A stretch of 64,000 bases of DNA from a virus (lineage: Duplodnaviria; Heunggongvirae; Uroviricota; Caudoviricetes), in the IMG/VR virus record IMGVR_UViG_2799112330_000002, positions 128,001 through 192,000 of that record; one strand, given 5' to 3'. Of the stretch, positions 10,286 to 55,594 are shown in pieces; the stretch's first letter is position 1; the number at the start of each line of letters is the position of its first letter. Under the pieces are notes generated by a model. It was given only the letters and a program-made list of their open reading frames with translations. It had not been told where the DNA came from and ran no database searches. The position numbers and the translations under genes were made by a program.

Positions 10286-11314
10286 ATGATTAATAATCAA
10301 TTATTGTATATTGGACTAAACGGTTTAGCAGGATCAGGGAAAGACACACTTGCAAAAATGCTTAATGTAATACTAATGAAAGATTGGAAAAACATTGATG
10401 AATGTAAAGAATTCTATGATAAATTCTATGTTCGTCCTAATGTTTCTGCAACATATTATGAAAAGACAAAAGAATATGACAATAAAGTAATATGTCTGGC
10501 TTTTGCTGATCAGTTAAAGACAATATGTTCTGATATCTTCGGTATTCCACTTAAATATTTCTATTTCAACAAATCAACCGCATGGGTATGTATCAACCAT
10601 AATTTTGAATATACGGAAATACGTCCTGATAATGTTGTTACCTGTGAAGACTATTTCTATAATATATCAGAATATAGTGAATCAGAAACAAAATATTGGA
10701 TGTCATTACGTGATGTACTTGTCTATATAGGAACATATGTATTGCAATCCGAAGTCAATAAGAATGTATTTGTCAATATTGTCTCAAACAAGATAAACAA
10801 TCTTTTATTGAAGAATCATAGTTTGTCTTATGCTATCATAACAGATGTAAGATTCACTCATGAGATTGAATTCATCAGAAAGAATAACGGAATAACAATC
10901 AAGATAATCAGGGATAGTGTTGTTCCTTTGTCAAATATTGCAGAGCATGATCTTGATGATGAAGACAGATATGATTATGTAATCTACAATAATGATACCT
11001 ATGATGACTTGTTCAATCAGGTATGGGATATTGTCCATAGTAACAAAGAGTTTGAAAATGATGTTGTAGATATGACAACCAGAGAAAATATCAACAACTA
11101 TTTGAGAAAGATTGATGAAGATGAATATCAGGTTTGTTCTCCCTATGGTATACAACAAATTGGTCATGAAAATGGAGAGATATCAATGATAGACCTAAAG
11201 GGCGGTCCAACAATTTATATAGATCAAGAGATACCCGGTACATCTATCATACCATATAGTATTGTTATGGATGAAAATACAAGTAAGTTCATAATAAAAG
11301 GGAATAGCGATTAA
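10286..11314 (+). CDS. Deoxynucleoside monophosphate kinase (T4 gp1-like)
   Basis: GLNGLAGSGKDT P-loop, AFADQLK, RDVLVYIGT and IITDVRFTHE motifs. Confidence 0.85.
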   Translation: MINNQLLYIGLNGLAGSGKDTLAKMLNVILMKDWKNIDECKEFYDKFYVRPNVSATYYEKTKEYDNKVICLAFADQLKTICSDIFGIPLKYFYFNKSTAWVCINHNFEYTEIRPDNVVTCEDYFYNISEYSESETKYWMSLRDVLVYIGTYVLQSEVNKNVFVNIVSNKINNLLLKNHSLSYAIITDVRFTHEIEFIRKNNGITIKIIRDSVVPLSNIAEHDLDDEDRYDYVIYNNDTYDDLFNQVWDIVHSNKEFENDVVDMTTRENINNYLRKIDEDEYQVCSPYGIQQIGHENGEISMIDLKGGPTIYIDQEIPGTSIIPYSIVMDENTSKFIIKGNSD

Positions 11315-12508: not shown

Positions 12509-14152
12509 TTATTTTTGAATTCTAAGTTCAGAATATTCATCTTCAAGTAGATGCTTCTTAGCAGGATTTACAAGATATGCTAATTTGCTCATTAAGTCTC
12601 TATTCAACAATACCTTTTGTTTCTTCTTTCTATTGTCAACTAAAGCAAACTTAGCATTAAGGAGTTTTCTTGTTCCTATTTGGATGCATGGGATCTCTAC
12701 AACTGTTCTTTCTTCAGTCACTTGTCCAACAATAGCTTTAGATACATCTACTTTCTTGAAGTTATATTCTTTTCCTTCAATTGTTGCAATGACATCATCA
12801 CCTTGTATAGATATCTTCTCACAGCCAATTGTTGATGCCTTTGCTCCATTTCCAGTATCAAATTTTGCTTCAAATGTTATCTCTTCTTCATTTTCCATTG
12901 TGAATGTAATGTCTTCAAGATATCCAACTGATTTTGGTGACAATACTAATTCATTTATGTCATTTATATTGTCTAATAATATTTTGCAGAAATTTTCATC
13001 AATTACATCACTTATACCTTCCGTACCAGGAGAAGCATTGAATTCAAGAACAACGTTGTCACCAATTTCTGGATTTGATCCCTTGACAAGTGGCATGATG
13101 TCAACAGCACACCAAGGCATTCCAGATATCTTTGCTACTTTAAGAGCTATCTCTTCTTGTTCTTTAGTCAATTCAACCTTTTCAGCAACAGCACCTAAAG
13201 AGACATTTGAACGGAAGTCACCACCAATCTTCTTACGTTTCATCTGAGCAAGAATCTTCTGTTTTGTTCTCATTGTCAATACATGTACTCTTATGTCACC
13301 ACCATCTGCTTCTTCTTTCTTCTGTACTAATAGTTCTCTTTCTTCATCAATAGCAAATATAGCTTGAAGGATTGAAAGAATAGTCTTGCCGTTTACCATG
13401 AATACACCAGTACCACCATGACCATCCAGGATCTTTACAACATATTCATATTTTTCAGATTCATCAGAATTCTGATCTTTATATATGTCTTTCAATTTCT
13501 TCTTAAGACTATCCATTCCGTCCTTTATGTCATTCTTAGATACTAATGTGAACTTTGGTTGTGGTATCTCATATCTTTCCATTAATACTGCGGACTGGTA
13601 TTTGTTGCATGCCTTCTTCAATGACTGAGCAGGATTGATTACAAATATACCCCAGTTCTGGATTTCTTTTATACATTCCATACATTCTTCAGACTCTTGA
13701 GCTCCAAGACGAACAATAGCAATAGTATCAATATTTGACTGATGATCAATAGTATACTTAAGCTTATCATCCCATATATCTATCTTGTCATCAGTTGCTT
13801 TATAGTTAAGCTGTTCTGCTACAAATATTTCTAGTTTGATGTCTTTTCCCTTTATAGCATCTTCCAAGTTCTTTAATGTCTTGTTCTTAGATGCATCTCT
13901 TTCATTAGTGAAGAACAATATATTTTTAAAGAAATATTCTTTGTTAGCTCCTAATGGGTCCTTTTCTGATGGTTCTATATCTAACTCATTTGTAGCTGAT
14001 TTGTCTTCTTGTGATTCACCAGGTTCTTCAAGATCTACTGGATCAATAGCAGAATCATCTTTTGGCAATAAGTCATCATCTGCTTCTAAGACTCTATTTA
14101 TGTCATTCAAATTAGTCAGATAAGTATGTAAATGTTCTTTAAACTTTTTCAT
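12509..14152 (-). CDS. rimK: RimK-family ATP-grasp ligase fused to a RimK-associated retropepsin-like protease
   Basis: VVKILDGHGGTGVF, DIRVHV, DFRSNVSLGA and VLEFNASPG motifs; C-terminal AKFDTGNG...VLLNR. Confidence 0.85.
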   Translation of the reverse strand: MKKFKEHLHTYLTNLNDINRVLEADDDLLPKDDSAIDPVDLEEPGESQEDKSATNELDIEPSEKDPLGANKEYFFKNILFFTNERDASKNKTLKNLEDAIKGKDIKLEIFVAEQLNYKATDDKIDIWDDKLKYTIDHQSNIDTIAIVRLGAQESEECMECIKEIQNWGIFVINPAQSLKKACNKYQSAVLMERYEIPQPKFTLVSKNDIKDGMDSLKKKLKDIYKDQNSDESEKYEYVVKILDGHGGTGVFMVNGKTILSILQAIFAIDEERELLVQKKEEADGGDIRVHVLTMRTKQKILAQMKRKKIGGDFRSNVSLGAVAEKVELTKEQEEIALKVAKISGMPWCAVDIMPLVKGSNPEIGDNVVLEFNASPGTEGISDVIDENFCKILLDNINDINELVLSPKSVGYLEDITFTMENEEEITFEAKFDTGNGAKASTIGCEKISIQGDDVIATIEGKEYNFKKVDVSKAIVGQVTEERTVVEIPCIQIGTRKLLNAKFALVDNRKKKQKVLLNRDLMSKLAYLVNPAKKHLLEDEYSELRIQK

Positions 14153-14290: not shown

Positions 14291-14851
14291 ATGAAGTTAA
14301 TAATTATAGAGGGAACAGACAATGTTGGAAAAGATACACTTATTTCAAGAATTATGGAAAACTACGATGTAATGACACTCATTCATTGTGGTAAGCCAAA
14401 GTCAAAAGATCATCCAAATGAATCACAGGACAGTTTATTCAATTTCTATATAAAAAGTATAATAAACAAGAAATATAATAATTCAGATGTCATTATTATG
14501 AACAGATCTCATATAGGTGAAGCAGTCTATGGAGTATTATATAGGAATAGGGACATAAATGAAGTATTGAAGAAGATTCATGATTGGAATGTTGAGCTTA
14601 TGAAATGTCCAGACCTTGAAGTAAAGTATATACAATTATTAAGTACATCCGAAAGACTATTGAAGAACAATGAAGATGGACAGTCATTATCAAAGGGAAA
14701 TAGTTCTAATATAATAAAAGAAACAGCATTGTTTACAGAAGCATATGTAAAGTCATTTTTAGACAAGAAACTTATATATGTAGATGATAATGGAGAATTC
14801 AGGACAAAAGAAGATATATTTGATGAAGCATGGGATTTCATTAATAAATAA
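14291..14851 (+). CDS. Thymidylate kinase-like dNMP kinase
   Basis: IIIEGTDNVGKDT P-loop; NRSHIGEAVYG motif. Confidence 0.75.
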   Translation: MKLIIIEGTDNVGKDTLISRIMENYDVMTLIHCGKPKSKDHPNESQDSLFNFYIKSIINKKYNNSDVIIMNRSHIGEAVYGVLYRNRDINEVLKKIHDWNVELMKCPDLEVKYIQLLSTSERLLKNNEDGQSLSKGNSSNIIKETALFTEAYVKSFLDKKLIYVDDNGEFRTKEDIFDEAWDFINK

Positions 14852-14875
14852 AAAGATATTAGATAAGAAGATATT

Positions 14876-15580
14876 ATGATTAAGACAGAAGATATATTGA
14901 AACAGTTCAAAGAAAAGTATGATAATAAAGATTTTAGAATAATTGGCAATAATGTACAGCAAGCAAAGACAATTGAGTTACAGAATGTACAGTTTGAAGT
15001 AGATAAGCCATGGATAGTAAGAGAACCAAACTATGATTATTTCAATAGAGAGCTTGAATGGTATAAGTCAGAATCATTGAATGTGAATGATATCCCAGAA
15101 GGTGCTCCAACAATGTGGAAGTCTTGTGCAACACCAATAGGATATATTAATTCAAATTATGGGTGGATGATCTGGTCTAAAGACAACTATAATCAATTTG
15201 ATCATTGTCTACAAAAACTAATTGAGGATCCACATACAAGAGAGGCATGTATGATATATAATAGACCATCAATGCAGGAAGACTATAATAAATTTGGCAT
15301 GCATGATTTTTGTTGTACATATTCTGTTCAATGTTTCATAAATGAAGACAAAGAAGGAAAGAAGCATCTAAAATATATTGTATATATGAGAAGTAATGAT
15401 GCAGTATTTGGATTTGATAATGATGCATTATGGCATAAGTATGTTCAGCAAATGCTAAGGAATAGACTTAGTGAACATTTTAATGAAGAATTCATAGCAG
15501 ACAATATTATATGGAATGCAGGATCATTACATATTTATGAAAGACATTTCAAATATTTAGAGGATGGACAAAACGAGTGA
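14876..15580 (+). CDS. dCMP hydroxymethylase-like enzyme (thymidylate synthase superfamily, T4 gp42-like)
   Basis: ELEWYKS, INSNYGW, TREACMIYNRPSM, DFCCT (catalytic Cys), MRSNDAVFGFDND (Asp at the dCMP-specificity position), WNAGSLHIYERHF. Confidence 0.85.
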   Translation: MIKTEDILKQFKEKYDNKDFRIIGNNVQQAKTIELQNVQFEVDKPWIVREPNYDYFNRELEWYKSESLNVNDIPEGAPTMWKSCATPIGYINSNYGWMIWSKDNYNQFDHCLQKLIEDPHTREACMIYNRPSMQEDYNKFGMHDFCCTYSVQCFINEDKEGKKHLKYIVYMRSNDAVFGFDNDALWHKYVQQMLRNRLSEHFNEEFIADNIIWNAGSLHIYERHFKYLEDGQNE

Positions 15581-16154
15581 CATAAAGAGAAAGTTGTTAG
15601 ATGAGCTTAAAGCTAATAATGTAAAAGATTGCGGATATAATTGCCAAAGTGGAAGAAGATATGTAGAAGTAAAGAATGCATTGTTTGAAGTTAACAAAGA
15701 TCGTATTTTTGAAAACATTCCTAAATTGTCTTATATGGATGATTCTTGGTATGTAGCAAATTATGAGCCTTTGCTAGAAAGGAATGATCAATATAATAAA
15801 TGCATTAATAAGTTGATTGAGAATCCAGCATCACGTCAAGCAGTTCTCATATTAGTAGATCCTAAAGAATATGACAATGAAGACAAAACATTCATATGTA
15901 CAATGTATATGCATATCTTTCTCAATCATATAGAAGAAAATAAATATGAATTGGAATATATTGTGCATATGAGGTCAAATGATGCTATAGAATTCATAAC
16001 CGATCATCAATGGCACCAGAAAATTTATTTTCGAATTTTTAATGAATTAATTGAGAAAACGAACTATATTATAATAAAGAAACCTATTGTTTGGAATGCA
16101 GATACTATTCATCTATATGAGCAGTTTTGGGATCAAGCAATAGACAATTATTAA
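15564..16154 (+). CDS. Second, shortened dCMP hydroxymethylase-like paralogue
   Basis: SRQAVL, FICT, MRSNDAIEFITD and WNADTIHLYE motifs; lacks the INSNYGW segment. Confidence 0.75.
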   Translation: MDKTSDIKRKLLDELKANNVKDCGYNCQSGRRYVEVKNALFEVNKDRIFENIPKLSYMDDSWYVANYEPLLERNDQYNKCINKLIENPASRQAVLILVDPKEYDNEDKTFICTMYMHIFLNHIEENKYELEYIVHMRSNDAIEFITDHQWHQKIYFRIFNELIEKTNYIIIKKPIVWNADTIHLYEQFWDQAIDNY

Positions 16155-16173
16155 CTTATAATATATATAGAGT

Positions 16174-16857
16174 ATGAAACATAAGATATCCGCATCAATA
16201 ATGTGTGTAGACAACCTATTAGATCTACAGTCAGAAATAAAGACATTAGAAGACATAGGTATTGACTATTTGCATTTGGATGCGATGGATGGGCATTTTG
16301 TAAATAATATTACATTTGGCCCAGATATTTTCAATGCTGTTCAAAAATGTTCTTCAATTCCTTGTGACTATCATCTTATGCTTGATAATCCATTACCATT
16401 CATACAAAGACTTGATCTTAACAATAATGATATTGTGACTATTCATGCTGAGATTGATTCACAAAGATTTGAAGAAGCATTTGAATATTTGAAGACATTA
16501 AAGAAAAGAGGAGTAAAGATAGGAGTAGCAATCAATCCGGGTACATCAATAGAATCATTGGTGAAATACTTGGATGATATTGATGTGATATTAGTCATGC
16601 TTATCAATCCTGGTTTTGCTGGTCAACCTATTATTGATGGAATATTACAAAAGCCTGTATATATCAGGAAATATCTAGATTCACTTAATCATAAGAAGAT
16701 AATGATATCTGTTGATGGTGGTGTATCAGTGGAAAGAGCAAAATATCTTTCAAAGAATGGTATAGACATGTTTGTTGGTGGTACTTCTGGTCTGTTCATA
16801 AAGAATAGTGATTTGAAAAAGAATGCAGAAATATTGAGAAAGAACATAAACAATTAA
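16174..16857 (+). CDS. Ribulose-phosphate 3-epimerase family protein, D-allulose-6-phosphate 3-epimerase (AlsE)-like
   Basis: HLDAMDGHFV, DYHLM, NPGFAGQ and VDGG motifs; SIMCxD N-terminus and GGTSGLF C-terminal loop are AlsE-type. Confidence 0.85.
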   Translation: MKHKISASIMCVDNLLDLQSEIKTLEDIGIDYLHLDAMDGHFVNNITFGPDIFNAVQKCSSIPCDYHLMLDNPLPFIQRLDLNNNDIVTIHAEIDSQRFEEAFEYLKTLKKRGVKIGVAINPGTSIESLVKYLDDIDVILVMLINPGFAGQPIIDGILQKPVYIRKYLDSLNHKKIMISVDGGVSVERAKYLSKNGIDMFVGGTSGLFIKNSDLKKNAEILRKNINN

Positions 16858-16891
16858 GACATAAATAAAACATAATAATTAGATAATATAT

Positions 16892-18553
16892 ATGAAAGTT
16901 TTTATTACAACATCTGGAATTGGATCAAGACTATTAGAGCTTACAAAATATACTAATAAGTCAATGATCAAAATAGGCAAGAAACCTGTTATATCTTATA
17001 TTATTGATGAATATCCTGAAGATACAGAGTTTGTCATTTCTCTTGGATATTTTGGTGATCACATCAAACAATATCTTGAGTTAGCATATCCTGACAAGAA
17101 GATTACATTTGTAAATGTTGATAACTATGCTGGTCCAGGATCATCTCAAGTCTATTCACAATTACAAGCTGAACAATATCTTCAAGAGCCATTTATCTAT
17201 CATGATTGTGATACTATTGTTCAGAACCTTCAAGAGCAGATACCAATGGATTTCAAATATAATTTCTTAGTAGGTTATGAGACAAATTCAGAGTTATATG
17301 ATGCTTTTGATTATGATGTGAATACTAAGACAAATGACAAGTATGACTCATATAAGCTTATAAAGACATATATGAAGCCTGATTCATTAGTAGGTATGCT
17401 TTCATTCATTGGTATTTGTGGTATATATGACTATAAGACATTCTGGAAATATATGCATAAAGCTTATGAGAATGAGACAGTTCCCTATGACTTCTTGGTC
17501 TATCACAAATATGGAATGTTCAAAAACAGTCTTAGAGCAATAAAAGTTGATAACTGGACAGATACTGGAAATATTGCTGGTGTAAAGAATGCAAGAAAGA
17601 TGTTCAAGGATCAGTTCTCAATATTAGACAAGAATGATCAGGCTATCTTCATCATAAAAGACAAGGTAATCAAGTTCTTTGCTAAAGATGGAGTAGTAGA
17701 CAATCTCCTTGTTCATTATAATGCTATAAAAGAATTCTGTCAGCCAATAACTCAGAAGACAAAGAACTTTATGTGCTATGACTATATTGATGCAGAGAAT
17801 GCTATAGACAAAATGAATCCTGTAAGATTTGAGTCATTTATGAACACACTTAAGGATTCAGGTTTCTGGGACAACAAGGAATGGATTGACAAAGAATTGT
17901 TCTTTACATGTATGCATAATTTCTATCTTAACAAGAACATACAACGTGTCAATCAGTTCAAGGAATTCTATCAGGTTACAGAAGACAAAGACATCTATGT
18001 GAATGACATTCTTATTCCAAAAGAATGGACTATTGAAAGGATGCTTAATGAGATGACAAAACTTGATGAATGGAAGAATAGTGTACCTTCTGGATGGCAT
18101 GGTGATTTTGTATTAGACAATATATTATATGATAGTAAGAATGAAAAATATATATTGTTAGACTGGAGACCTAACTTTGGGGAAATCATAGAATACGGAG
18201 ATAAAAACTATGACTTTGGAAAGATGAATCATAACATCACATTCAATTTCAATAGTGCTTATAATGATTTGTTCTCCATTGATGAATCCGATCCAGATAA
18301 TATCTATATTAATATATTATGCAACAATTATGTCTATGAATGCAAAGAGGTATTAAGAAAATTTGTAGAAGAAAACTATAATGTAAGATTCCCTTATATT
18401 GAAATGATTACTGGAGCATGTTGGGTAAGTATGTCACCATTGTATTTCCTCAATCCAGTATCAAAGTTCTTGTTCTATATGGGTAAACTTACTCTTTATG
18501 TAAACTTAATGAAATTACTTGGAAATAAGATAACAACAAAATTTGACAAATAA
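16892..18553 (+). CDS. Sugar-phosphate nucleotidyltransferase fused to an APH/choline-kinase-like phosphotransferase
   Basis: N-terminal TSGIGSRL...TNKSM and WTDTG; C-terminal HGDFVLDNI, LLDWR and GDKNYDFGK. Confidence 0.8.
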   Translation: MKVFITTSGIGSRLLELTKYTNKSMIKIGKKPVISYIIDEYPEDTEFVISLGYFGDHIKQYLELAYPDKKITFVNVDNYAGPGSSQVYSQLQAEQYLQEPFIYHDCDTIVQNLQEQIPMDFKYNFLVGYETNSELYDAFDYDVNTKTNDKYDSYKLIKTYMKPDSLVGMLSFIGICGIYDYKTFWKYMHKAYENETVPYDFLVYHKYGMFKNSLRAIKVDNWTDTGNIAGVKNARKMFKDQFSILDKNDQAIFIIKDKVIKFFAKDGVVDNLLVHYNAIKEFCQPITQKTKNFMCYDYIDAENAIDKMNPVRFESFMNTLKDSGFWDNKEWIDKELFFTCMHNFYLNKNIQRVNQFKEFYQVTEDKDIYVNDILIPKEWTIERMLNEMTKLDEWKNSVPSGWHGDFVLDNILYDSKNEKYILLDWRPNFGEIIEYGDKNYDFGKMNHNITFNFNSAYNDLFSIDESDPDNIYINILCNNYVYECKEVLRKFVEENYNVRFPYIEMITGACWVSMSPLYFLNPVSKFLFYMGKLTLYVNLMKLLGNKITTKFDK

Positions 18554-18556
18554 GAT

Positions 18557-19471
18557 ATGAAGATAGCCGGAATTACAGTTGCTTACAATGAAGGTAATAT
18601 GGTGAAATATGTAATGCCATATTATGAGAAAATGGGTATTGATAAATTGATAGTCTATGACAATATGTCTACTGATGACATGTGTGAAAAACTTTCTAAA
18701 TATCCATTTGTGGAGATTCGTCATTTTGATACTAATGGGAAGTTTGATGACAGAAAGAATTCTGATCTCAAGGAAGAAGTGTCTTATGAATTACTTCAAG
18801 AAGGATATGATTGGGTATATACTGGAGACTTTGATGAAATAGTCTATTGTGAAGGTGATTTCAAGAAGGAACTTGAGAAAATTGAGGAATTAGGTGGAAC
18901 AGTACTTTGTAGAGACATGATCCAGCCATTCAATCCATTGCCTTATGACTTTGATGAGACAAAACTTATTCATGAACAATGTACTCATTTCCTTACATGG
19001 CATGACTGGTCAAGTACATGGGGTGGATCAAAGGTATTGTTGAGAAGTAAGAAAGTACCGAAGATAAAGTTGTCATTAGGTGCCCATGGAACAGGATTTC
19101 CAAAGAAGGGTATTGAGACAGATCCAGTATTGTTTGGCTATCCTTTCATCACATTCCATCTCAAATATGTTGACTTTACTGCATTAGAGCATAATTCTCA
19201 CGAAAAGCATGCAAGAATACAATGGAGATTAGATGTCCCAACATGTACAGCAGTAGATGCATCATTTACAAAACGTCTTTATTCTCGTACAATGGGTGAT
19301 GCTGGTATAAAGAATACTATAGATAAATTAATGAAGAAGACAAGTAAACTTAATATTGCTCCTGGTTGGGAATCATTCAAGGAATACTATGATAAAAACT
19401 ATAAGATGAATATGACTAAATTTAAAAATATTAAACACGTAAAAAGATTAGATTATGAACAGAACAGCTGA
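18557..19471 (+). CDS. GT-A fold glycosyltransferase (GT2-like)
   Basis: AYNE, VYDNMSTD and YDWVYTGDFDE (DxD) motifs. Confidence 0.8.
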   Translation: MKIAGITVAYNEGNMVKYVMPYYEKMGIDKLIVYDNMSTDDMCEKLSKYPFVEIRHFDTNGKFDDRKNSDLKEEVSYELLQEGYDWVYTGDFDEIVYCEGDFKKELEKIEELGGTVLCRDMIQPFNPLPYDFDETKLIHEQCTHFLTWHDWSSTWGGSKVLLRSKKVPKIKLSLGAHGTGFPKKGIETDPVLFGYPFITFHLKYVDFTALEHNSHEKHARIQWRLDVPTCTAVDASFTKRLYSRTMGDAGIKNTIDKLMKKTSKLNIAPGWESFKEYYDKNYKMNMTKFKNIKHVKRLDYEQNS

Positions 19472-20801
19472 AAAGAACATTTTGATCGGAAAAATTGGAA
19501 AATCAATTAAATTCAAGAACTTAGACATTAGAACGGGTGGTGATGCATGCATGATATTCTATTCATCAATTGCAAGAATGAATCCTGAATATAACTTCTA
19601 TTGGATTGGCCCAAACCAGATGAACAAGCTTAGTCAGGAGGAGTATGACTATATATTCCCTAACCATAACGTATTCTCTGCTTATGGATCAGATTATGAC
19701 AACCCTAATGCACATCCATTCCAGCCAATATTGGATTATTTCAAAAATAATGACATAAAGATTGACTTCGCTTTGCTTATGTCTGGAATGTGCTCAGGTC
19801 TCAATGTACCGAATTTCATGAAGAGTAAGAAGACTGGTGAATATGCTAAGATCTTGAATGCATTCAAAAACTATGTTGGTCCCTATATCTGGACACTTAA
19901 TGAAACAAATGTGCCTTTCTATCTTATTTCAGAGGATGCAAGATATATTACAACAAATGCTACTGATCTCTGTAACAGGGAAAGACTTATCTTTACACAA
20001 ACAAATGGTTATTTCAATCCTATTCCCCATATCACATCATTGACAGACTTCACATTGAAAGAAGATAGCTCAATCAAATGTATCTATGGATATGTTGAGA
20101 GAATATTTATGATGGGTCTTAGTCATGACTGGAAAGAGAAGATTGATATTGACAGGAAACTTCATTCTACTGGAAACAGACTTATTGTTATCTCAAATGG
20201 ATGTGGTCAGAAAGATATCAATAGAGCAAATGGCGGAAAGGGTTCAAGACTTCCTGAATACAAGAAATATATCATTGACAATCTTAAGAATACCGAATAT
20301 TCTGGTACAAAGATCTATGGACAGTGGGATGACAAGACATATGCTAAATATCCTGATACTGTCATTGACAAGCCACTTGTAGAACTTGAAGATGAAGTAG
20401 CAGATGCTCGTTATTCATTAGTATATTCTATCATGCCTGGGTTTGTTACTGTAAAAGCTTGGGAAATGATCATCAAGGGTCTTATCCCATTTATCCATCC
20501 CGATTATGACAAAGACAGACTTCTTGGACTTCCTGAATATTGTTATCTTAAGGATGAGAAAGACTTGTTGATAAAGATGAGAGAACTTGATGCTCATGAT
20601 GAATTATATCTACGCTTATTGAATAATTGCTTTAATTGCATATCAGAAGATGATCTCAATGGTAAGCGAATGAACAATTTCATATTCAACAAGATTGCAG
20701 AAGATCTGGGATTTGAGTATAAAGAGAAAGAAGGATGTGAATCTATTTTTGATCATTTCTCAAAGACTGTATTTGATCCTTCAAAAGTTATAAATAAATA
20801 G
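19455..20801 (+). CDS. GT-B glycosyltransferase, T4 DNA beta-glucosyltransferase-like
   Basis: DARY motif; C-terminal FVTVKAWEM...PFIHPDYD...YLKDEKDLLIKMRELD resembles the C-terminal half of T4 BGT. Context in a hydroxymethylase operon. Confidence 0.6.
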   Translation: MNRTAEKNILIGKIGKSIKFKNLDIRTGGDACMIFYSSIARMNPEYNFYWIGPNQMNKLSQEEYDYIFPNHNVFSAYGSDYDNPNAHPFQPILDYFKNNDIKIDFALLMSGMCSGLNVPNFMKSKKTGEYAKILNAFKNYVGPYIWTLNETNVPFYLISEDARYITTNATDLCNRERLIFTQTNGYFNPIPHITSLTDFTLKEDSSIKCIYGYVERIFMMGLSHDWKEKIDIDRKLHSTGNRLIVISNGCGQKDINRANGGKGSRLPEYKKYIIDNLKNTEYSGTKIYGQWDDKTYAKYPDTVIDKPLVELEDEVADARYSLVYSIMPGFVTVKAWEMIIKGLIPFIHPDYDKDRLLGLPEYCYLKDEKDLLIKMRELDAHDELYLRLLNNCFNCISEDDLNGKRMNNFIFNKIAEDLGFEYKEKEGCESIFDHFSKTVFDPSKVINK

Positions 20802-20810
20802 ACAATATAT

Positions 20811-21302
20811 ATGAACAAGATAATTGTAATTAGCGATATTGATGGTTGCTTGACAGATGGAGGACTTTATTATACTGCTGATGGCAAAGTAATGAAGAAG
20901 TTTGGAGTTGGTGATCATGAAGGAGTAAAGCTTTTACGAAAGAACAATATAGATATCCTGTTTATCACTGCCGATAAGACAGGATATCCTATTGTCAAAC
21001 GTAGAATAGATGATATGAAATGTGATCTTGTTGTTGTAAATGAAATAGAACGATTAGACTTCATTAAAGAATATGTGAAAGAATATGAACAAGTGGTATT
21101 CTTTGGAGATGGTCTTGGGGATGCTAATGTGAAGAGCAAAATCCCAGAAATATATTTCATAACTCCAAGAAACGCCAGAAATGAAGCTAAATATGTTTCT
21201 GACTATATCACCGAAAACAAAGGTAGTGAAGGAGCTTTCTTAGATCTTGCTATACATGTTTCTTGGAAAACAAATACATATTATAATAAACTATATGAAT
21301 AG
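20811..21302 (+). CDS. KdsC-like HAD sugar-phosphate phosphatase
   Basis: SDIDGCLTDG, KKFGVGD, FFGDGLGD and GSEGAF motifs. Confidence 0.85.
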   Translation: MNKIIVISDIDGCLTDGGLYYTADGKVMKKFGVGDHEGVKLLRKNNIDILFITADKTGYPIVKRRIDDMKCDLVVVNEIERLDFIKEYVKEYEQVVFFGDGLGDANVKSKIPEIYFITPRNARNEAKYVSDYITENKGSEGAFLDLAIHVSWKTNTYYNKLYE

Positions 21303-22587
21303 ACAAATAAGATGGGCAGCAATACAACCGCTTACTGGAGGTATGTATCTTGGGGCTGAAGAAGCTATAGGAAATAAAGCCGAATGGATCATGTCATTCA
21401 AAGGATTAGATACTGTCAAATATTCAAAGACTGATCCAACACAAATGACATCTGTTGGCAATGAATATAACCTATTGAAATATCTAGAAAAGAAAGGGAG
21501 ATCTGTACCCTATTATGTCATTAATAGTCCAATGTTTGATATTGACATAAACAGTACAAATGTTGACATTACTTTAGATGGTGACAAGGCAACTCCTGAT
21601 TATAATGATATTGACATAATTGTTGGTGTTCCTGTTTGTTCAGGTCTTTCAATGGTCACAAGTGGTAGTGAAGAGACAAAGAAGCAGAGAAACTGCAATA
21701 TGCAATGGATGGCTAATTATACATTACAAGTAATAAGGCCAAAGGTATATATATTTGAGAATGCTCCAACATTGATGACAGAACGTGGTGAGTATCTAAG
21801 AGAATGGTTTAATGAATTAGCATCTTTGAATGGTTATTCTATTCTCTATTATAAGACAGATACTATTCTTCATAACAATCCGCAAAAACGTCCTCGTACA
21901 TTTGTCATTTTTGTAAAGCATAACAAGTATGAGGCACAACAAGATCCACCATTGTTTGATTGGGAAAAGAAACCTATATCATTAGAAGATTTTTTGAACA
22001 ATATACCAGAAGGACTTGAGCAAGATGTTCCTGTATCAACAAGCCCAAATAACTTCTATTTGAAAGACTTTATGAATGAAGAATATAATAATGACTGGAA
22101 GAAACTTATCAATGGATCCGTCATGAACTTCATCATCAAAGAAAAGAAATTAGACAAGTTGATTAAGCATACTGAAAATAATGACAAATATGGAGATGAG
22201 AACAAGGAGAAGACATTGAAATATTTCAATCATATTAAGAAGAAGAAAGAAATGGGATTGAATTTCTATGGTAATGATCTTGTATATTTCAAAGACAAAC
22301 TTCCTTCTGTTCAATTTAGAGCAATCCCTAATATGGTACATATAACAAAGGACAGAATATATACTATAAGAGAATATCTTACATTTATGGGAATGCCTTA
22401 TGACTTTATCTTATATGGAGACAAGTCTAATCTTCCAAAGATCGCTCAGAATGTTCCAGTAGGTACAGCAAAATTCATAGTTGAACAAGCAGTAAAGATC
22501 ATTGAGAACTGGGGACAAGAAAGAACAACAAATCATAATGCGTTATATCAAAACAATATAGAACAAAAGACAAGAAACGGGGATTAA
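21295..22587 (+). CDS. DNA cytosine-5 methyltransferase-like protein with atypical motifs
   Basis: Likely start at ATG 21295. Motif IV VPVCSGLS, motif VI IFENAP, motif VIII PQKRPRTF, motif IX TIREYLTFMGMPYDF, motif X IAQNVP; motif I reads IQPLTGG. Confidence 0.75.
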   Translation: MNRQIRWAAIQPLTGGMYLGAEEAIGNKAEWIMSFKGLDTVKYSKTDPTQMTSVGNEYNLLKYLEKKGRSVPYYVINSPMFDIDINSTNVDITLDGDKATPDYNDIDIIVGVPVCSGLSMVTSGSEETKKQRNCNMQWMANYTLQVIRPKVYIFENAPTLMTERGEYLREWFNELASLNGYSILYYKTDTILHNNPQKRPRTFVIFVKHNKYEAQQDPPLFDWEKKPISLEDFLNNIPEGLEQDVPVSTSPNNFYLKDFMNEEYNNDWKKLINGSVMNFIIKEKKLDKLIKHTENNDKYGDENKEKTLKYFNHIKKKKEMGLNFYGNDLVYFKDKLPSVQFRAIPNMVHITKDRIYTIREYLTFMGMPYDFILYGDKSNLPKIAQNVPVGTAKFIVEQAVKIIENWGQERTTNHNALYQNNIEQKTRNGD

Positions 22588-22604
22588 TTTCCCTGTTTTT
22601 TTTT
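22575..22604 (+). terminator. Intrinsic terminator ending the modification operon
   Basis: AAACGGGGA-ttaatt-TCCCTGTTT followed by a long T run. Confidence 0.7.
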
Positions 22605-22865: not shown

Positions 22866-23555
22866 ATGAAGGCAGAAAATAAGATTATTGCTTTGTTTTT
22901 CTATGGTGCTATGGCTTACCAATTGTTCTATGTCAACAATACAGTAGCAGAAAACAAAACTAATGTTATTACAAGAGACCAGGTGTTCAATGAATTAACA
23001 ATGTTCAATGATGATGAACAACCAAAGAACATTGAACAAGTATCTTCTAAGAAAATTGTAAAGCATCATCCAAGAAAGAGATACAAGTTATCAAAGAAGG
23101 GAAAGAACTTCATTAAGAAACATGAGACTTGTGTACTTCATGCTTATAATGATCCAGACCCAAAACGTCGTTCAGTAGGTTGGGGACATCAGATTCAGCC
23201 AGGTGAGAACCTTGAACATATCACTAAAGCTAAAGCTGATGAGTTGTTTGAAAAAGATGTTGAATGGGTAAATGATGCAATCAACAGGCTTATTGCTCAA
23301 CAAGACAACAGGTTTACTTATTCACAAGGATTTATTGATGGTCTTGGTAGTCTTATCTACAACTGTGGAGAACGTGGAGTTACTTTGACAGAGTTCTGGG
23401 CAAGATGGAAGAAATGCCGTTATGATGCCAGCTCACCAGAATATATCAATAGGAATGACTGGAACTATACTATTGCAGCAGTAAAGACAAGCAGGATCTC
23501 AGCTCCCGGTCATGTAGAAAGAAGATATAATGAGCATATGCTAATGTTAGACTAA
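22866..23555 (+). CDS. GH24 phage lysozyme with N-terminal hydrophobic anchor
   Basis: FIKKHE...AYND...SVGWGH catalytic triad spacing; SLIYNCG and GHVERRYNE motifs. Confidence 0.85.
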   Translation: MKAENKIIALFFYGAMAYQLFYVNNTVAENKTNVITRDQVFNELTMFNDDEQPKNIEQVSSKKIVKHHPRKRYKLSKKGKNFIKKHETCVLHAYNDPDPKRRSVGWGHQIQPGENLEHITKAKADELFEKDVEWVNDAINRLIAQQDNRFTYSQGFIDGLGSLIYNCGERGVTLTEFWARWKKCRYDASSPEYINRNDWNYTIAAVKTSRISAPGHVERRYNEHMLMLD

Positions 23556-23707
23556 TAAAATGTTAATATAAGTTAAAAACTTTTATCAAATTTTGAATTA
23601 TTATTAAATAGTTGACTATATTATAAAAGAAATAATAAAATATATAAAGAGATTTTACTTTAAGAATTATTATTTTACAAATTTATTTAAACAAAAGACG
23701 TAGAAAG

Positions 23708-24760
23708 ATGAAGAAGTTTATTTTAAGTTTGATGCTGATGTTCAGCATGGTAATGGGTGTTTCCGCTCAGACCGCTATTGAGACACCCAAGTTTTTTGAC
23801 AATTGGTATGTTGGTGTAAATGCCGGCGCTACCACTAATTTAGAGTTCAATAAGGTTTTCCCAGTAAATGCAACTGTTGGTGCAGTACTTGGAAAAGAGT
23901 TTACTCCTGTATTTGGTGCACAGATTGAAGGTGTAACATGGCTTGGTGATGCTAATTTTGCTAATTCACATACTGCTTTCAAAGCAATTGATCTTTGTGT
24001 AAATGGAACAGTTAATTTTAGTAACTTGTTCTTTGGATATCTTGGAACACCTCGTAAGTTTGAAGTAAGTGGTGTAGCTGGTATCGGTTGGCTTCATATC
24101 TATGGTGACCACAATCTTGATGGCACTTATGGTCATGAAGACAATGATGAGTTTATAGCAAAGACTGCCGTAAATCTTGCTTGGAATCTTGGTAAGACAA
24201 GATCACATCAGTTATATGTACAGCCAGGTATCTATTGGAACTTGACAAATGGTCCTCGTGATTATGTACATTTCAATAGTAAGCATGCACAGGTTGGTGT
24301 ATCTGTTGGTTATGTCTACAAATTCAAGACAAGCAATGGAACACATAATTTCAAGACTTATGATGTAGGCATGATGCAGGATGAAATTTCAAGATTGAAT
24401 GATGCTCTTGCAGCTTGTGAGAATCGTCCTCCACGCGAAGTTACAAAGGAAGTTGCCGTAAGGGTTCCTGTACCTGCATTTGAGGTAATTGAGTTTGAGC
24501 TTGGTTCTTATGAATTGTTAGATGAGGCAAAGGCTAAGCTTGATAAGATTGATGAGCGAATGACTGTAGAAATTACAGCTACAGCTTCTCCTGATGGAAA
24601 AGAACAATTTAATAAAGAGTTGTCAGACAAACGTGCTCAGGCAGTAGCAGACTATCTTAAGGGTAGAGGAGTTACTGTAAAGAGTGCCGAAGGTCAGGGA
24701 GTCAAGTTGAACAGATTAGCTATAGTTACATTTGTTCGTCCTGAAAGACCACGTAGATAA
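23708..24760 (+). CDS. ompA: OmpA-family outer membrane protein (Bacteroidales type)
   Basis: Signal peptide ending SAQ, DNWYVGV beta-barrel, C-terminal ASPDG...NKELSDKRAQAVADYL peptidoglycan-binding domain. Confidence 0.9.
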   Translation: MKKFILSLMLMFSMVMGVSAQTAIETPKFFDNWYVGVNAGATTNLEFNKVFPVNATVGAVLGKEFTPVFGAQIEGVTWLGDANFANSHTAFKAIDLCVNGTVNFSNLFFGYLGTPRKFEVSGVAGIGWLHIYGDHNLDGTYGHEDNDEFIAKTAVNLAWNLGKTRSHQLYVQPGIYWNLTNGPRDYVHFNSKHAQVGVSVGYVYKFKTSNGTHNFKTYDVGMMQDEISRLNDALAACENRPPREVTKEVAVRVPVPAFEVIEFELGSYELLDEAKAKLDKIDERMTVEITATASPDGKEQFNKELSDKRAQAVADYLKGRGVTVKSAEGQGVKLNRLAIVTFVRPERPRR

Positions 24761-35499: not shown

Positions 35500-35616
35500 A
35501 TTTAAGTCTCCAGGTTCTAACAACATTTGTTATATATTGGAGACAGTTCAAACAATAAATTTAAGTCTCCAGGACAGTTCAAACAATAAATTTAAGTCTC
35601 CAGGTTCTAACAACAT
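35475..35616 (+). repeat. Triplicated ~32-bp direct repeat
   Basis: GACAGTTCAAACAATAAATTTAAGTCTCCAGG occurs three times; the first copy spans the gp2 stop codon. Confidence 0.9.
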
Positions 35617-35644
35617 AAATAAAATATATATAGAGGCAAAATTT

Positions 35645-36499
35645 ATGAAGGTAGCAATTTGTACTGTTGGTAGACTAGAAAATAGATATATCAATGAATT
35701 CGTTGATCATTATAGAAATATTGGAATTGATAAAATATTCATTCATGACAATAACTATGATGGAGAAGATCATTTTGAAGATGTATTACAACAAGATATA
35801 AATAGTGGATTAGTTGAAATTATTAATTACAGAAATAGACAAGTATGTCAACTAGAAGCTTATATGAAATGTTATGAACTTCATAAAAATGAATATGATT
35901 GGATTCTTTTTATAGATTGTGATGAATTTCTTTATATGGAGCATTTTAATAATATTCATGAATTCTTAGCTCAACCGAAATTCAATAGTTTTCAAATGAT
36001 TCATATCAATTGGATGATTTATGGTGATAATGATTTAGTATATTATGAAAATAAAAAATTAAAAGATCGATTTATTAATCCAATATTACCTTTTAATTTT
36101 AAGACTACAGAAAATGATATGACATTTAATTGTCATATTAAATCAATTATTAGAGGAGGATTAGAAAGATTAATTTTTGTTTATAGTCCACATACACCTG
36201 AAAATAATTTTAAATGTTGTGATGCCACCGGTAATGTATGTCAGTCAAATAGTCCATTTCTTGTTCCGTATAACTTTACTGAAGCACATTTCAAGCATTA
36301 TGTTACAAAGACAATTGATGAATATTATCATATTAAAGTTAAAAGAGGATTTCCGGATGTAAATAAAGATTTCTTTAAAACTAATAATTGGATTGAACAA
36401 TTTTTTAAGATAAATAAAATGACAATAGAAAAACAACTATATATAAGAGGACTATATAATAAAAATATTGTAAAAAATGAAAAATTAAATGGAATTTAA
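35645..36499 (+). CDS. Glycosyltransferase (GT2/GT92-like)
   Basis: Likely start MKVAICT at 35645; ENRYINEF, IHDN and YDWILFIDCDEF motifs. Confidence 0.8.
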   Translation: MKVAICTVGRLENRYINEFVDHYRNIGIDKIFIHDNNYDGEDHFEDVLQQDINSGLVEIINYRNRQVCQLEAYMKCYELHKNEYDWILFIDCDEFLYMEHFNNIHEFLAQPKFNSFQMIHINWMIYGDNDLVYYENKKLKDRFINPILPFNFKTTENDMTFNCHIKSIIRGGLERLIFVYSPHTPENNFKCCDATGNVCQSNSPFLVPYNFTEAHFKHYVTKTIDEYYHIKVKRGFPDVNKDFFKTNNWIEQFFKINKMTIEKQLYIRGLYNKNIVKNEKLNGI

Positions 36500-36548
36500 C
36501 CCATAGTATTTCTATTTTAATAATATTAAAAATATTTTTTTACAATAT

Positions 36549-37394
36549 ATGAATAATAGATTTTGTATTGTAATTCCTGTCTATAAAACAGATTTAAGTA
36601 TAACAGAGGAATTATCATTTAGAAACTTTATCAATACTTTCAAAAACAAAGACAACAATATTTTCTTCATATGCCCAGATGACCTTGATACAACTGCATA
36701 TGATACTGTCATAAAAAATGAATTGTCTAAGAAAGATAAGTTATTGATAGAAAGAAAGAATTTTGATGCCAAATATTTCAAAAGTGAATTCACTTATAGT
36801 CAGTTATGTGTTAACTATGATTTCTATAGTTCATTTGATGATTATGACTATATGCTTATCTGGCAGTTTGATTGCTATCTATTCAATGATAATATTGAAA
36901 AATGGTGTGATAAGGGATATGACTATATAGGAGCACCAATCATTTCTGAATATAGTGGATGGAAAAGCAATAATGATATTGTATGGAAGCCAAAAGTCGG
37001 CAATGGCGGATTAAGCTTAAGAAAGATTAGTACATTCAAAGATGTCACAAATCCAGAAGGAGAATTCTTGACATACTATAAGTCAACTTATAATAATAAT
37101 TTGTTTGAAAAACTTAAGTTTGAAGATGTATATTTCTATAATGTGTTCCGTTATTATTGGGATGCTAATATTCCTTCATGGGAAGAAGCTGGTCGATTTG
37201 CATTAGATATGAATCCAGAAGTATATGCTAATTTTGTTAATGATAAAGAATTCTTACCTATGGCTTGTCACGCATGGCCAAAGAATATTAGATTCTGGAA
37301 AGACAAAATAAAAGAAATAGACAATAACATAATAGATTATTGTGAAGAAAAATATAAAGAATTTTTTAAATTATATTATGGAGAAAAAAAATGA
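36549..37394 (+). CDS. DUF5672-like putative glycosyltransferase
   Basis: IVIPVYK, IWQFDC, YDYIGAP, VGNGGLSLRK and EDVYF motifs. Confidence 0.75.
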   Translation: MNNRFCIVIPVYKTDLSITEELSFRNFINTFKNKDNNIFFICPDDLDTTAYDTVIKNELSKKDKLLIERKNFDAKYFKSEFTYSQLCVNYDFYSSFDDYDYMLIWQFDCYLFNDNIEKWCDKGYDYIGAPIISEYSGWKSNNDIVWKPKVGNGGLSLRKISTFKDVTNPEGEFLTYYKSTYNNNLFEKLKFEDVYFYNVFRYYWDANIPSWEEAGRFALDMNPEVYANFVNDKEFLPMACHAWPKNIRFWKDKIKEIDNNIIDYCEEKYKEFFKLYYGEKK

Positions 37395-42961: not shown

Positions 42962-43951
42962 ATGACTATGGATAGAATAAGTGTAATTACAACATACTAC
43001 AATGCAGAGAAATTTGTTATTGATGCTATAAATAGTGTAAACCAGCAAATAGTTGGTGATGATTTTGAAGTTGAATATGTATTAGTAAATGACAAGACTC
43101 CAGACAATACTCATAAACTAGTACAGGATTTTGTCAATAAGGTTGGAAATCCTAAGATAGACTTCAAACTTGTGGAACCTGATGAGAATCTTGGATGCGG
43201 TGGAGCAAGAAAGTTTGGTATTGATAATGCAACAGGTAACTATTTTATGTTCCTTGATGCTGATGACTACTATCTTCATACTGACTTCATCCTTAGAGCT
43301 TATCATACTATAAAAGAAGAGAATGCAGACATCGTTGAATTTGGTATACTGTTCAATCAACCTAATGGACAGCAAATCAATAATACAGCACCACAGAAAA
43401 TAGTAATAGAAAACAATCCTTCATTAGCAGAGATAGCATTGTTCAAAGACAATCTCATAAAGTTCAATGTATGGTCAAAGATATATACCAGAGAAATGGT
43501 TGAGTCTTATCCATATTCTACAGTAAGAACATTTGAAGATGTACGAACAATACCTATATGGATAAGCAATGCTAAGAAAATAGTAATAATGCCAAATACA
43601 GAAATCAATTACAGGGCTGCTGGAGGATCTATCATTCGTACTAATATGGTTGATACACGGCTTGGTACTATTACAGCAATTGCAGAATTGTTTGAACGTT
43701 TCAAGGGAGATTTGAATGTAATGAAGGCAATGTATGGAAGAGCAATGGTAGACTTAGAAGCAATTCTTCATAATCATTCATCTAATGATGAAGGGTTCAA
43801 TGAAATGTCAAGACTAAATACAAAGATGCTTGCTTACATATATCCTGACAAATACAAGACAATGACATTCCATATTGAGGATGAACAAAATATGCAAAAT
43901 CAGGGAGGTAAGACTCCTCAAGAAAAAAAGGATGATTTGGAAATCATATAA
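42962..43951 (+). CDS. Family 2 glycosyltransferase
   Basis: ISVITTYYNAE, VNDKTPD, NLGCGGARKFG, FLDADD and FED motifs. Confidence 0.9.
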   Translation: MTMDRISVITTYYNAEKFVIDAINSVNQQIVGDDFEVEYVLVNDKTPDNTHKLVQDFVNKVGNPKIDFKLVEPDENLGCGGARKFGIDNATGNYFMFLDADDYYLHTDFILRAYHTIKEENADIVEFGILFNQPNGQQINNTAPQKIVIENNPSLAEIALFKDNLIKFNVWSKIYTREMVESYPYSTVRTFEDVRTIPIWISNAKKIVIMPNTEINYRAAGGSIIRTNMVDTRLGTITAIAELFERFKGDLNVMKAMYGRAMVDLEAILHNHSSNDEGFNEMSRLNTKMLAYIYPDKYKTMTFHIEDEQNMQNQGGKTPQEKKDDLEII

Positions 43952-54823: not shown

Positions 54824-55594
54824 ATGAAAATCTACAATTCATTTGGTATTAAACCAACAAATACTTATGTGTCAGCAGGTTCTGACTATTATATCCCAAA
54901 TATCAAGACAGAAGAGCAAAAAGAAAGAGCATTGAAAGCGTTTGAAAAGTCTTATAAGAAAACAACAGATGAAATTAATGAAATATATGATGTTATTTAT
55001 AAGGCAATTGAAGATACACATATAGATCAATCTCAAGTAACTAATCTTGTTCATCTTTATTTAGCATTCTATAATCCAGTAATTGAAGCACTTGATAAAC
55101 TAGAAGACAATATTGATTATTTTATTAAACAGCATGTTCTTTATGATGAAAAGAAAAAAGTAGTAGGATTGAAAATGGATCTTAATGATACTTTGTTTAT
55201 CAATTCAGGAATTAAGATTGCTTTAGATACTGTTCTTAGTGATCATGTAGCTCCTAATAGTTCAGCAACAGTAAATGATTTGAGATTGCTTGGTATTGGT
55301 ATTGCTGGTCTTTATGTAAACAAATCAGGAAAGGGAAATGCTGGATTTGATGTACGTAGCTGCTTGGTGGATGAAGATTATTCTGGATTTGTTCATTTAT
55401 CAATGGCTTATACAAAAGATTTAATCACACAAGGAGAAAACTATATATATTGTGGAGATAAATTAGTTCAAATGATGCTTATTCCAGTTTTCCATACTCA
55501 ATATGAAGAAATTGATGAGAATGAATATAATAAAATAATGAGTGAATCGGAAAGAGGAGATGGTGGATTTGGTAGTTCAGATATCAAGCATTAA
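54824..55594 (+). CDS. dut: Trimeric dUTPase with a large insertion
   Basis: Motifs SAGSD, NKSG, LVDEDYSG, GDKLVQ and RGDGGFGSS. Confidence 0.85.
   Translation: MKIYNSFGIKPTNTYVSAGSDYYIPNIKTEEQKERALKAFEKSYKKTTDEINEIYDVIYKAIEDTHIDQSQVTNLVHLYLAFYNPVIEALDKLEDNIDYFIKQHVLYDEKKKVVGLKMDLNDTLFINSGIKIALDTVLSDHVAPNSSATVNDLRLLGIGIAGLYVNKSGKGNAGFDVRSCLVDEDYSGFVHLSMAYTKDLITQGENYIYCGDKLVQMMLIPVFHTQYEEIDENEYNKIMSESERGDGGFGSSDIKH

Follow-up and report, generated by a model that had tools for sequence, protein, structure and literature searches.

Which sugar, if any, is attached to cytosine by the gene block at 14291-22587 of a viral DNA stretch of 64,000 nucleotides (the window; positions 128,001 to 192,000 of IMG/VR record IMGVR_UViG_2799112330_000002, Caudoviricetes)? 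The block comprises nine co-oriented open reading frames (ORFs) on the + strand, with intergenic distances of 24, -17, 19, 34, 3, -17, 9, and -8 nt if the methyltransferase starts at the ATG at 21295. An initial annotation described it as a self-contained operon for cytosine hypermodification with an unusual sugar, and its family names for all nine genes were reproduced by our profile and structure searches. The block is a real, conserved, predicted module for glycosylation of 5-hydroxymethylcytosine (hmC), in which a T4-type base arm and transferase are combined with Afh-like sugar activation and a new entry enzyme. We put the probability that it makes glycosyl-hmC with a rare sugar produced by the phage itself at about 75%.

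Two block proteins share the thymidylate synthase (TS) fold. T4-type dCMP hydroxymethylases are marked by the catalytic Cys and by Asp at ThyA positions 143, 177, and 169; Asn at 169 is the mark of flavin-dependent hydroxylases such as RB69 gp48 (PMC13326640). The first protein (14876-15580, +) matches PDB entry 1b49 (E 4e-61) and shows 48% identity with T4 gp42 across 230 aa. It keeps the catalytic Cys (C146) and the equivalents of D143, D169, and D177 (ThyA numbering; HDFCC and RSND..FGFDND). At 169, the motif reads S-N-D in both block copies versus S-Q-N in RB69. Because D169 is kept rather than Asn, the product should be hydroxymethyl-dCMP (hm-dCMP), and a hydroxylase yielding 5-hydroxycytosine was ruled out. 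The protein is thus a predicted dCMP hydroxymethylase of the T4 gp42 type, not of the RB69 hydroxylase type, and the hm-dCMP synthase expected in the block is supported. The second protein (15564-16154, +; PF00303, E 4.5e-6) is a shortened paralogue, 28% identical to gp42 over 118 aa. It overlaps the first gene, keeps the residues for nucleotide binding along with the Cys, RSND, and the dCMP-type Asp, has Thr at the 143 position, and is missing the RELEWY/NSNYG region. Of the two hydroxymethylase-like proteins annotated, only the first is therefore predicted to be a complete enzyme. A second gp42 copy recurs in L002, L070, and L130 (L numbers denote the compared loci) and is hence no isolated relic; it is absent from L001, L045-L047, and most relatives. 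We regard this copy as a predicted degenerate, accessory protein.

The first gene of the block (14291-14851, +) encodes a thymidylate-kinase-like nucleotide kinase (phrog_761, E 1.3e-13). It is the best match of RB69 gp45 (E 6e-5) on C82, the contig that carries the window, and it matches 17 family members. The deoxynucleoside monophosphate (dNMP) kinase annotated here hence has the expected fold but is a gp45 homolog. The T4 gp1-type dNMP kinase, a candidate hm-dCMP kinase, is encoded at 10286-11314 (+; phrog_139, E 1.3e-35), outside the block, which makes the block less than fully self-contained.

The transferase of the GT-B type (GT, glycosyltransferase; 19455-20801, +) has 343 homologs and no match in Pfam, PHROG, or NCBIfam. 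Its predicted model (pLDDT 92.7) best matched the structure of T4 beta-glucosyltransferase (BGT; Z 22.8, rmsd 3.8, 311 aligned residues); the runner-up scored Z 18.0. A profile of close homologs retrieved no relevant PDB entry, and BGT was detected only by a deeper, 94-sequence profile, which scored 26 bits against a maximum of 7.2 over 500 shuffles. R265 and E337 correspond to BGT R195 and E272. D161 is invariant in 94/94 sequences, and D161-x-R163 resembles BGT D100-x-R102 by motif inspection, the profile alignments having spanned the C-terminal domain only. In marine T4-like relatives, members of this family lie between DNA polymerase/hydroxymethylase and uvsX, which is the b-gt position in T4. 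The protein is a T4 BGT homolog by fold and sequence, in agreement with the annotation. Fold, sequence, and gene position together make hmC a well-supported predicted acceptor.

The GT-A transferase (18557-19471, +; PF13704, E 1e-12) is predicted to be accessory. Among eight related loci, it was found in L002 only, and its homolog P0362 (49% identical) lies outside any such cluster. These findings argue little for the disaccharide that had been proposed beside a monosaccharide; a second sugar is possible, but would not be core. A weakly AGT-like gene occupies a similar accessory slot in L300. More GT-like genes (PF13704/GT92, DUF5672, and GT2) lie outside the block, at 35537-37394 and 42962-43951.

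In phages HY126, RB69, and DLP3, a SIS isomerase provides arabinose-5-phosphate, AfhE phosphorylates its C1, AfhF removes the 5-phosphate, and AfhE then forms UDP-arabinofuranose (PMC13326640). The block encodes a nucleotidyltransferase (NTase)-sugar kinase fusion (16892-18553, +), with NTase matches, a weak APH-type kinase match, and the HGD motif, and a KdsC/KDN-9-phosphatase-like HAD phosphatase (20811-21302, +; NF058599, E 5e-23, under the cut-off; structure matches PDB 2p9j and 3e81), the candidate for the AfhF role. The likeness to AfhE and AfhF is one of architecture; the fusion belongs to a distant subfamily and scored 12.8 bits only against RB69 gp53+52. This architecture supports the proposal that the phage makes its own nucleoside diphosphate sugar (NDP-sugar). 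The annotation had also stated that the gene set is not a characterised pathway. The kinase-phosphatase-nucleotidyltransferase logic is known in phages as AfhE/AfhF (PMC13326640), and the novelty is confined to the entry enzyme and to the combination with hmC and BGT. The arabinose-5-phosphate isomerase of the Afh pathway has no counterpart on C82: no SIS/KdsD or RpiB gene was found on the 410-kb contig, nor a SIS gene in L001, L002, and L014 (partial records). A sugar that is neither glucose nor arabinose, as predicted earlier, is thus probable. ADP-heptose synthesis was rejected, as the block has no GmhA/SIS or GHMP kinase. KfoE, a putative NTase-kinase whose deletion removes fructose, was considered as a precedent for fructose activation and set aside.

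The entry enzyme (16174-16857, +) is a ketose-phosphate 3-epimerase of the ribulose-5-phosphate 3-epimerase (RPE) family (E 8e-50). Its best PDB matches are Escherichia coli AlsE (3ct7, E 8e-37) and RPE (2fli, E 1e-35). It has the long AlsE-type phosphate loop (GGTSGLF); relative to the three RPE structures compared, GTSGLF has one extra residue, and a 4-residue loop was present in 95/95 scored relatives. Chan et al. reportedly tied this loop length to substrate specificity in 2008. The S-x-M-C and PGFAGQ motifs are also shared with AlsE. In a quick tree, the enzyme falls in a clade separate from SIS-linked epimerases (all trees were quick trees with long-branch warnings, and only well-supported clades were used). 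Its nearest cellular kin, at 45-48% identity, belong to TarI-TarJ-epimerase (cytidylyltransferase-reductase-epimerase) cassettes in polysaccharide loci, including that of Parabacteroides distasonis. These cassettes pass the product to a reductase, not to an isomerase; hence, the ketose phosphate would be used without isomerization. We slightly favor psicose-6-phosphate as the product and sugar intermediate. For the TarI-TarJ-long-loop-epimerase cassettes of L295-L298, also in polysaccharide loci and one of them from P. distasonis, the product may be CDP-allitol or CDP-altritol instead of a pentitol derivative.

The synteny expected in related phages was recovered. Epimerase, NTase-kinase, GT-B, and HAD genes recur in eight loci, complete in L001, L002, L045, L047, L128, L299, and L300 and up to the contig end in L046. 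At least three cassette types accompany the GT-B family. The first, with an epimerase and no isomerase, is found in the window, L001, L002, L045-L047, L128, L299, and L300. The second, with SIS and a different epimerase clade, occurs in rumen phages (L013, L050, L065, L066, L077, and L094). The third, with NTase-kinase and HAD but neither epimerase nor isomerase, occurs in L125, L127, L014, Enterococcus phages 9183 and Planchet, and Pseudoalteromonas phage XG4. In the phage NTase-kinase clade of the window (SH-aLRT 100), members from first-type and third-type loci are intermingled, with identities of 45-83%; their loci, most of which are fragments, showed no isomerase. Addition of a C3 epimerase alone is most readily explained if the kinase takes a ketose. 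Most simply, it would take fructose-6-phosphate where the epimerase is missing and psicose-6-phosphate where it is present.

Several members of the third type come from cultured phages. In Planchet (L003, OX422066.1, 6266-12794; also in 9183 and TJE4), a kinase, a TS homolog that differs from gp42 in its N-terminal motifs, dUTPase, HAD, NTase-kinase, and the same GT-B family are found without epimerase or isomerase. XG4 (L004, PP712099.1, 100-7552), whose sequence record is unannotated, carries hydroxymethylase, HAD, NTase-kinase, GT-B, a second possible GT, a methyltransferase, and an NTP pyrophosphohydrolase (phrog_173). The relative of the cassette in L127 is on a contig with Lak-like recoding, where TAG encodes Gln.

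From the observed gene identities, diagnostic residues, BGT homology, and synteny, we infer every reaction of the following route. The gp42 homolog would convert dCMP to hm-dCMP, which the phage kinases would channel into DNA. By analogy with the AfhE/AfhF route, the epimerase would convert fructose-6-phosphate to psicose-6-phosphate, the kinase domain would phosphorylate the anomeric carbon (as in AfhE), the HAD enzyme would strip the 6-phosphate (as AfhF does), and the NTase domain would yield the NDP-sugar (as in AfhE). The BGT homolog would move the sugar to hmC, and the DNA would be shielded from restriction and CRISPR nucleases. In angustmycin biosynthesis, AlsE-type enzymes supply psicose-6-phosphate, which is then activated and transferred (PMC8599513). 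That the attached sugar is psicose itself, linked as a ketoside, is a tentative proposal. The full scheme, in which NDP-psicofuranose is made from fructose-6-phosphate, a BGT-family enzyme places psicose on hmC, and epimerase-less sister phages carry fructosyl-hmC, is more doubtful still.

Several observations weigh against this route. The epimerase scored nearly equally against AlsE and RPE (130 vs 127 bits) and reached 181 bits against the AlsE model NF007266, whose cut-off is 271. Of the four AlsE markers S52, Y134, T142, and D147, three are replaced in it by the RPE-type residues G, L, and N. Being under the cut-off and without three clade markers, the enzyme would at best work like AlsE. 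In the wider NTase-kinase subfamily of bacteria and marine viruses, the neighbor is an isomerase-like gene, SIS in 48/169 loci and cupin in 82/169; this nearly constant association suggests aldose substrates. Elsewhere, these sugar cassettes are used for surface glycans, and the window phage carries glycosyltransferases besides those of the block. A dCTPase search of C82 gave no match to PF08761, phrog_173, MazG, PRA-PH, or dimeric dUTPase, though a divergent enzyme is possible; cytosine may therefore be replaced only in part. In the cupin (PF01050) cassettes (L123, L132, and L217-L294), common in marine viruses and CPR (candidate phyla radiation) bacteria, the NTase-kinase is accompanied by HAD and by a protein of ~330 aa with no Pfam match, which we take to resemble a GatZ/KbaZ-type epimerase.

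A rather unlikely alternative is that a host RpiB or a KdsD-like SIS enzyme isomerizes psicose-6-phosphate, and that the resulting aldohexose (D-allose or D-altrose) is activated at C1 as AfhE does with arabinose-5-phosphate. E. coli RpiB acts on allose-6-phosphate, RpiB was present in Bacteroides in a control search, and sister NTase-kinases occur with SIS and epimerase in 48 loci and in the six rumen phage loci of the second type. However, the epimerases of those SIS-cassette phages belong to a different clade, their NTase-kinases are only ~30% identical, and RB69 and DLP3 bring their own isomerase, whereas none was seen in phages of the window type. A different option, which we consider unlikely, is an ordinary RPE acting on ribulose-5-phosphate, with a pentulose (xylulose) or a derivative as the sugar. 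Among the NCBIfam models whose cut-off the epimerase exceeds, the RPE subfamily NF004076 matches best, relatives are annotated as RPE, the marker sites are RPE-type, and TarI-TarJ-epimerase cassettes could make CDP-arabinitol or CDP-xylitol. Yet the long loop was present in all scored relatives, and the three RPE structures have the short one. Moreover, xylulose-5-phosphate cannot form a ring and is already made by hosts, so a dedicated epimerase gene would add little.

The NDP-sugar might also have another destination. If the GT-B used a host sugar nucleotide such as UDP-glucose, the sugar cassette and the GT-A could glycosylate virion proteins or the host surface. The occurrence of related cassettes in polysaccharide loci, the further glycosyltransferases in the window, and L064 and L079, which carry the GT-B with no sugar genes nearby, would all suit this improbable arrangement. 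It accords poorly with the NTase-kinase, GT-B, and HAD genes being adjacent or overlapping in phages of the window type despite differing surroundings (L128, L299, L125, and L127), and with the exchange of different sugar cassettes next to the same GT-B family. Least probable in our view is another rare sugar, for example from the C3 epimer of sedoheptulose-7-phosphate, or addition of the first sugar to the nucleotide before replication. The KdsC-like HAD, the cluster-specific kinase present besides the gp1-type kinase, and the unresolved timing of the first sugar in RB69 and DLP3 are compatible with it; the block, however, has no heptose genes, and the closest structural match, T4 BGT, has DNA as its substrate. 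A phage-made rare sugar on hmC remains our preferred reading.

The last gene of the block (21295-22587, +; PF00145, E 6e-21) encodes a phage-specific protein resembling C5-cytosine methyltransferases. It has motifs IV, VI, VIII, IX, and X of these enzymes, and the catalytic Cys, ENAP, QxRxR, and QNVP are conserved in 38 homologs. Motif I reads IxPLxGG throughout the family, including cyanophage S-TIM61, instead of the canonical S-adenosylmethionine motif FxGxG. Relatives occur in cyanophage S-TIM5 and phage XG4, and synteny of the gene with hydroxymethylase and GT-B extends from rumen phages to marine ones. It is absent from L299, L125, and L127; the sugar arm can hence do without it. The conservation of this gene and the missing dCTPase suggest that cytosine substitution in the phage DNA may be partial. 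We hold it most likely, at about even odds, that the enzyme targets those cytosines that escape modification in this phage, for which no dCTPase was detected; alternatively, it may act on hmC. The DNA of S-TIM5 is said to be methylated at cytosines following purines. CpG depletion (rho 0.34 on C82) was rejected as a footprint of the enzyme; the bacterial contigs binned with C82 are equally low (0.35), as are loci without the gene. Palindrome avoidance gave no clear C-specific pattern. S-TIM5 also encodes a protein named DNA alpha-GT, and the 'ThyA' adjoining the related methyltransferase in S-TIM61 (L302, 4757-9194) appears to have Asp at ThyA-177, the dCMP-type signature. The protein at 54824-55594, which adds a long N-terminal stretch to a trimeric dUTPase fold, could serve as a dCTP deaminase or stand in for dCTPase.

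The annotation had placed the packed genes between a promoter and a terminator. Upstream lies a 138-nt AT-rich gap facing a divergent gene, and no promoter there stood out from background in a scan that found 77 sites where 60.5 were expected. A terminator-like hairpin with a T-run (22579-22601, +) closes the block, its hairpin (22579-22593) overlapping the last stop codon; such sites were as frequent as expected by chance (2 vs 2.1), so position alone speaks for this terminator. The divergent gene (12509-14152, -) encodes a RimK-like ATP-grasp protein with a C-terminal aspartic-protease-like motif, and a RimK-like ATP-grasp gene adjoins the block also in L001, L002, L045, L130, and L300. Directly 3' of the block (22866-24760) are an endolysin (phrog_7) and an OmpA-family outer-membrane protein. 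C82 (410,106 bases, 29% GC, genetic code 11) encodes a T4-type major capsid protein, a B-family DNA polymerase, 32 tRNA calls, and tmRNA. It is an uncultured jumbo phage binned in a bacterial metagenome-assembled genome (1.9 Mb, 26% GC, 7% contamination), and that bacterium is probably not its host. The OmpA gene and the nearest cellular epimerase relatives suggest a host among the Bacteroidales. An NAD-dependent epimerase gene at C82:278455-279465 has unrelated neighbors and was set aside as not linked to the block.

Our literature searches turned up no account of such a gene set, none of psicose as a DNA modification, and no report that the DNA of Enterococcus phage 9183 is modified. In the published work covered, phage cytosines carry glucose, arabinose, or galactose/glucose chains, all of them aldoses. 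If the proposed route is correct, it would provide a ketose-linked DNA modification, and gain or loss of one epimerase would switch the DNA sugar. One BGT-like lineage with interchangeable sugar cassettes, akin to those of cell-surface loci, would be a direct route to DNA-coat diversity against modification-dependent nucleases. The three enzymes and the GT form a compact set that can be assayed on fructose-6-phosphate and hmC-DNA. A function for a widespread, uncharacterised bacterial NTase-kinase family would follow, with possible enzymes for hmC labelling and rare-sugar nucleotides.

The strategy of glycosylating cytosine is known from phages T4 and RB69; the predicted psicose route is new. 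The T4 glucosyl-hmC system (gp42, gp1, gp56, and BGT) and the window phage have in common a gp42-type hydroxymethylase (48% identity), a BGT-homologous GT-B, and a gp1-type kinase, which lies near the block. Unlike T4, the window phage encodes sugar activation, has no detectable gp56-type dCTPase, and adds a gp42 paralogue, a GT-A, and a C5-methyltransferase-like gene. With the arabinosyl-5-hydroxycytosine pathway of RB69, DLP3, and HY126, it shares an NTase-kinase fusion, a HAD phosphatase, a gp45-type kinase, a TS homolog, and a GT in one block. It differs in having a hydroxymethylase (D169) instead of a hydroxylase (N169), an RPE-family epimerase instead of a SIS isomerase, a KdsC-type instead of a gp51-type HAD, and a very distant NTase-kinase. 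The GT-B is also closer to T4 BGT (Z 22.8) than to the HY126 GT (9iqz, Z 15.1). AlsE and angustmycin biosynthesis provide the epimerase likeness (long loop and both motifs) and a precedent for psicose activation and transfer, whereas the window epimerase departs from AlsE in its score and clade markers, and angustmycin biosynthesis proceeds through a pyrophosphokinase and a phosphoribosyltransferase-like step instead of an NDP-sugar. The uncharacterised SIS-epimerase-NTase-kinase-HAD cassettes of bacterial polysaccharide loci share the NTase-kinase subfamily (roughly 30-40% identity) and the KdsC-like HAD; unlike the block, they include an isomerase, their epimerases belong to a different clade, and they serve surface glycans.

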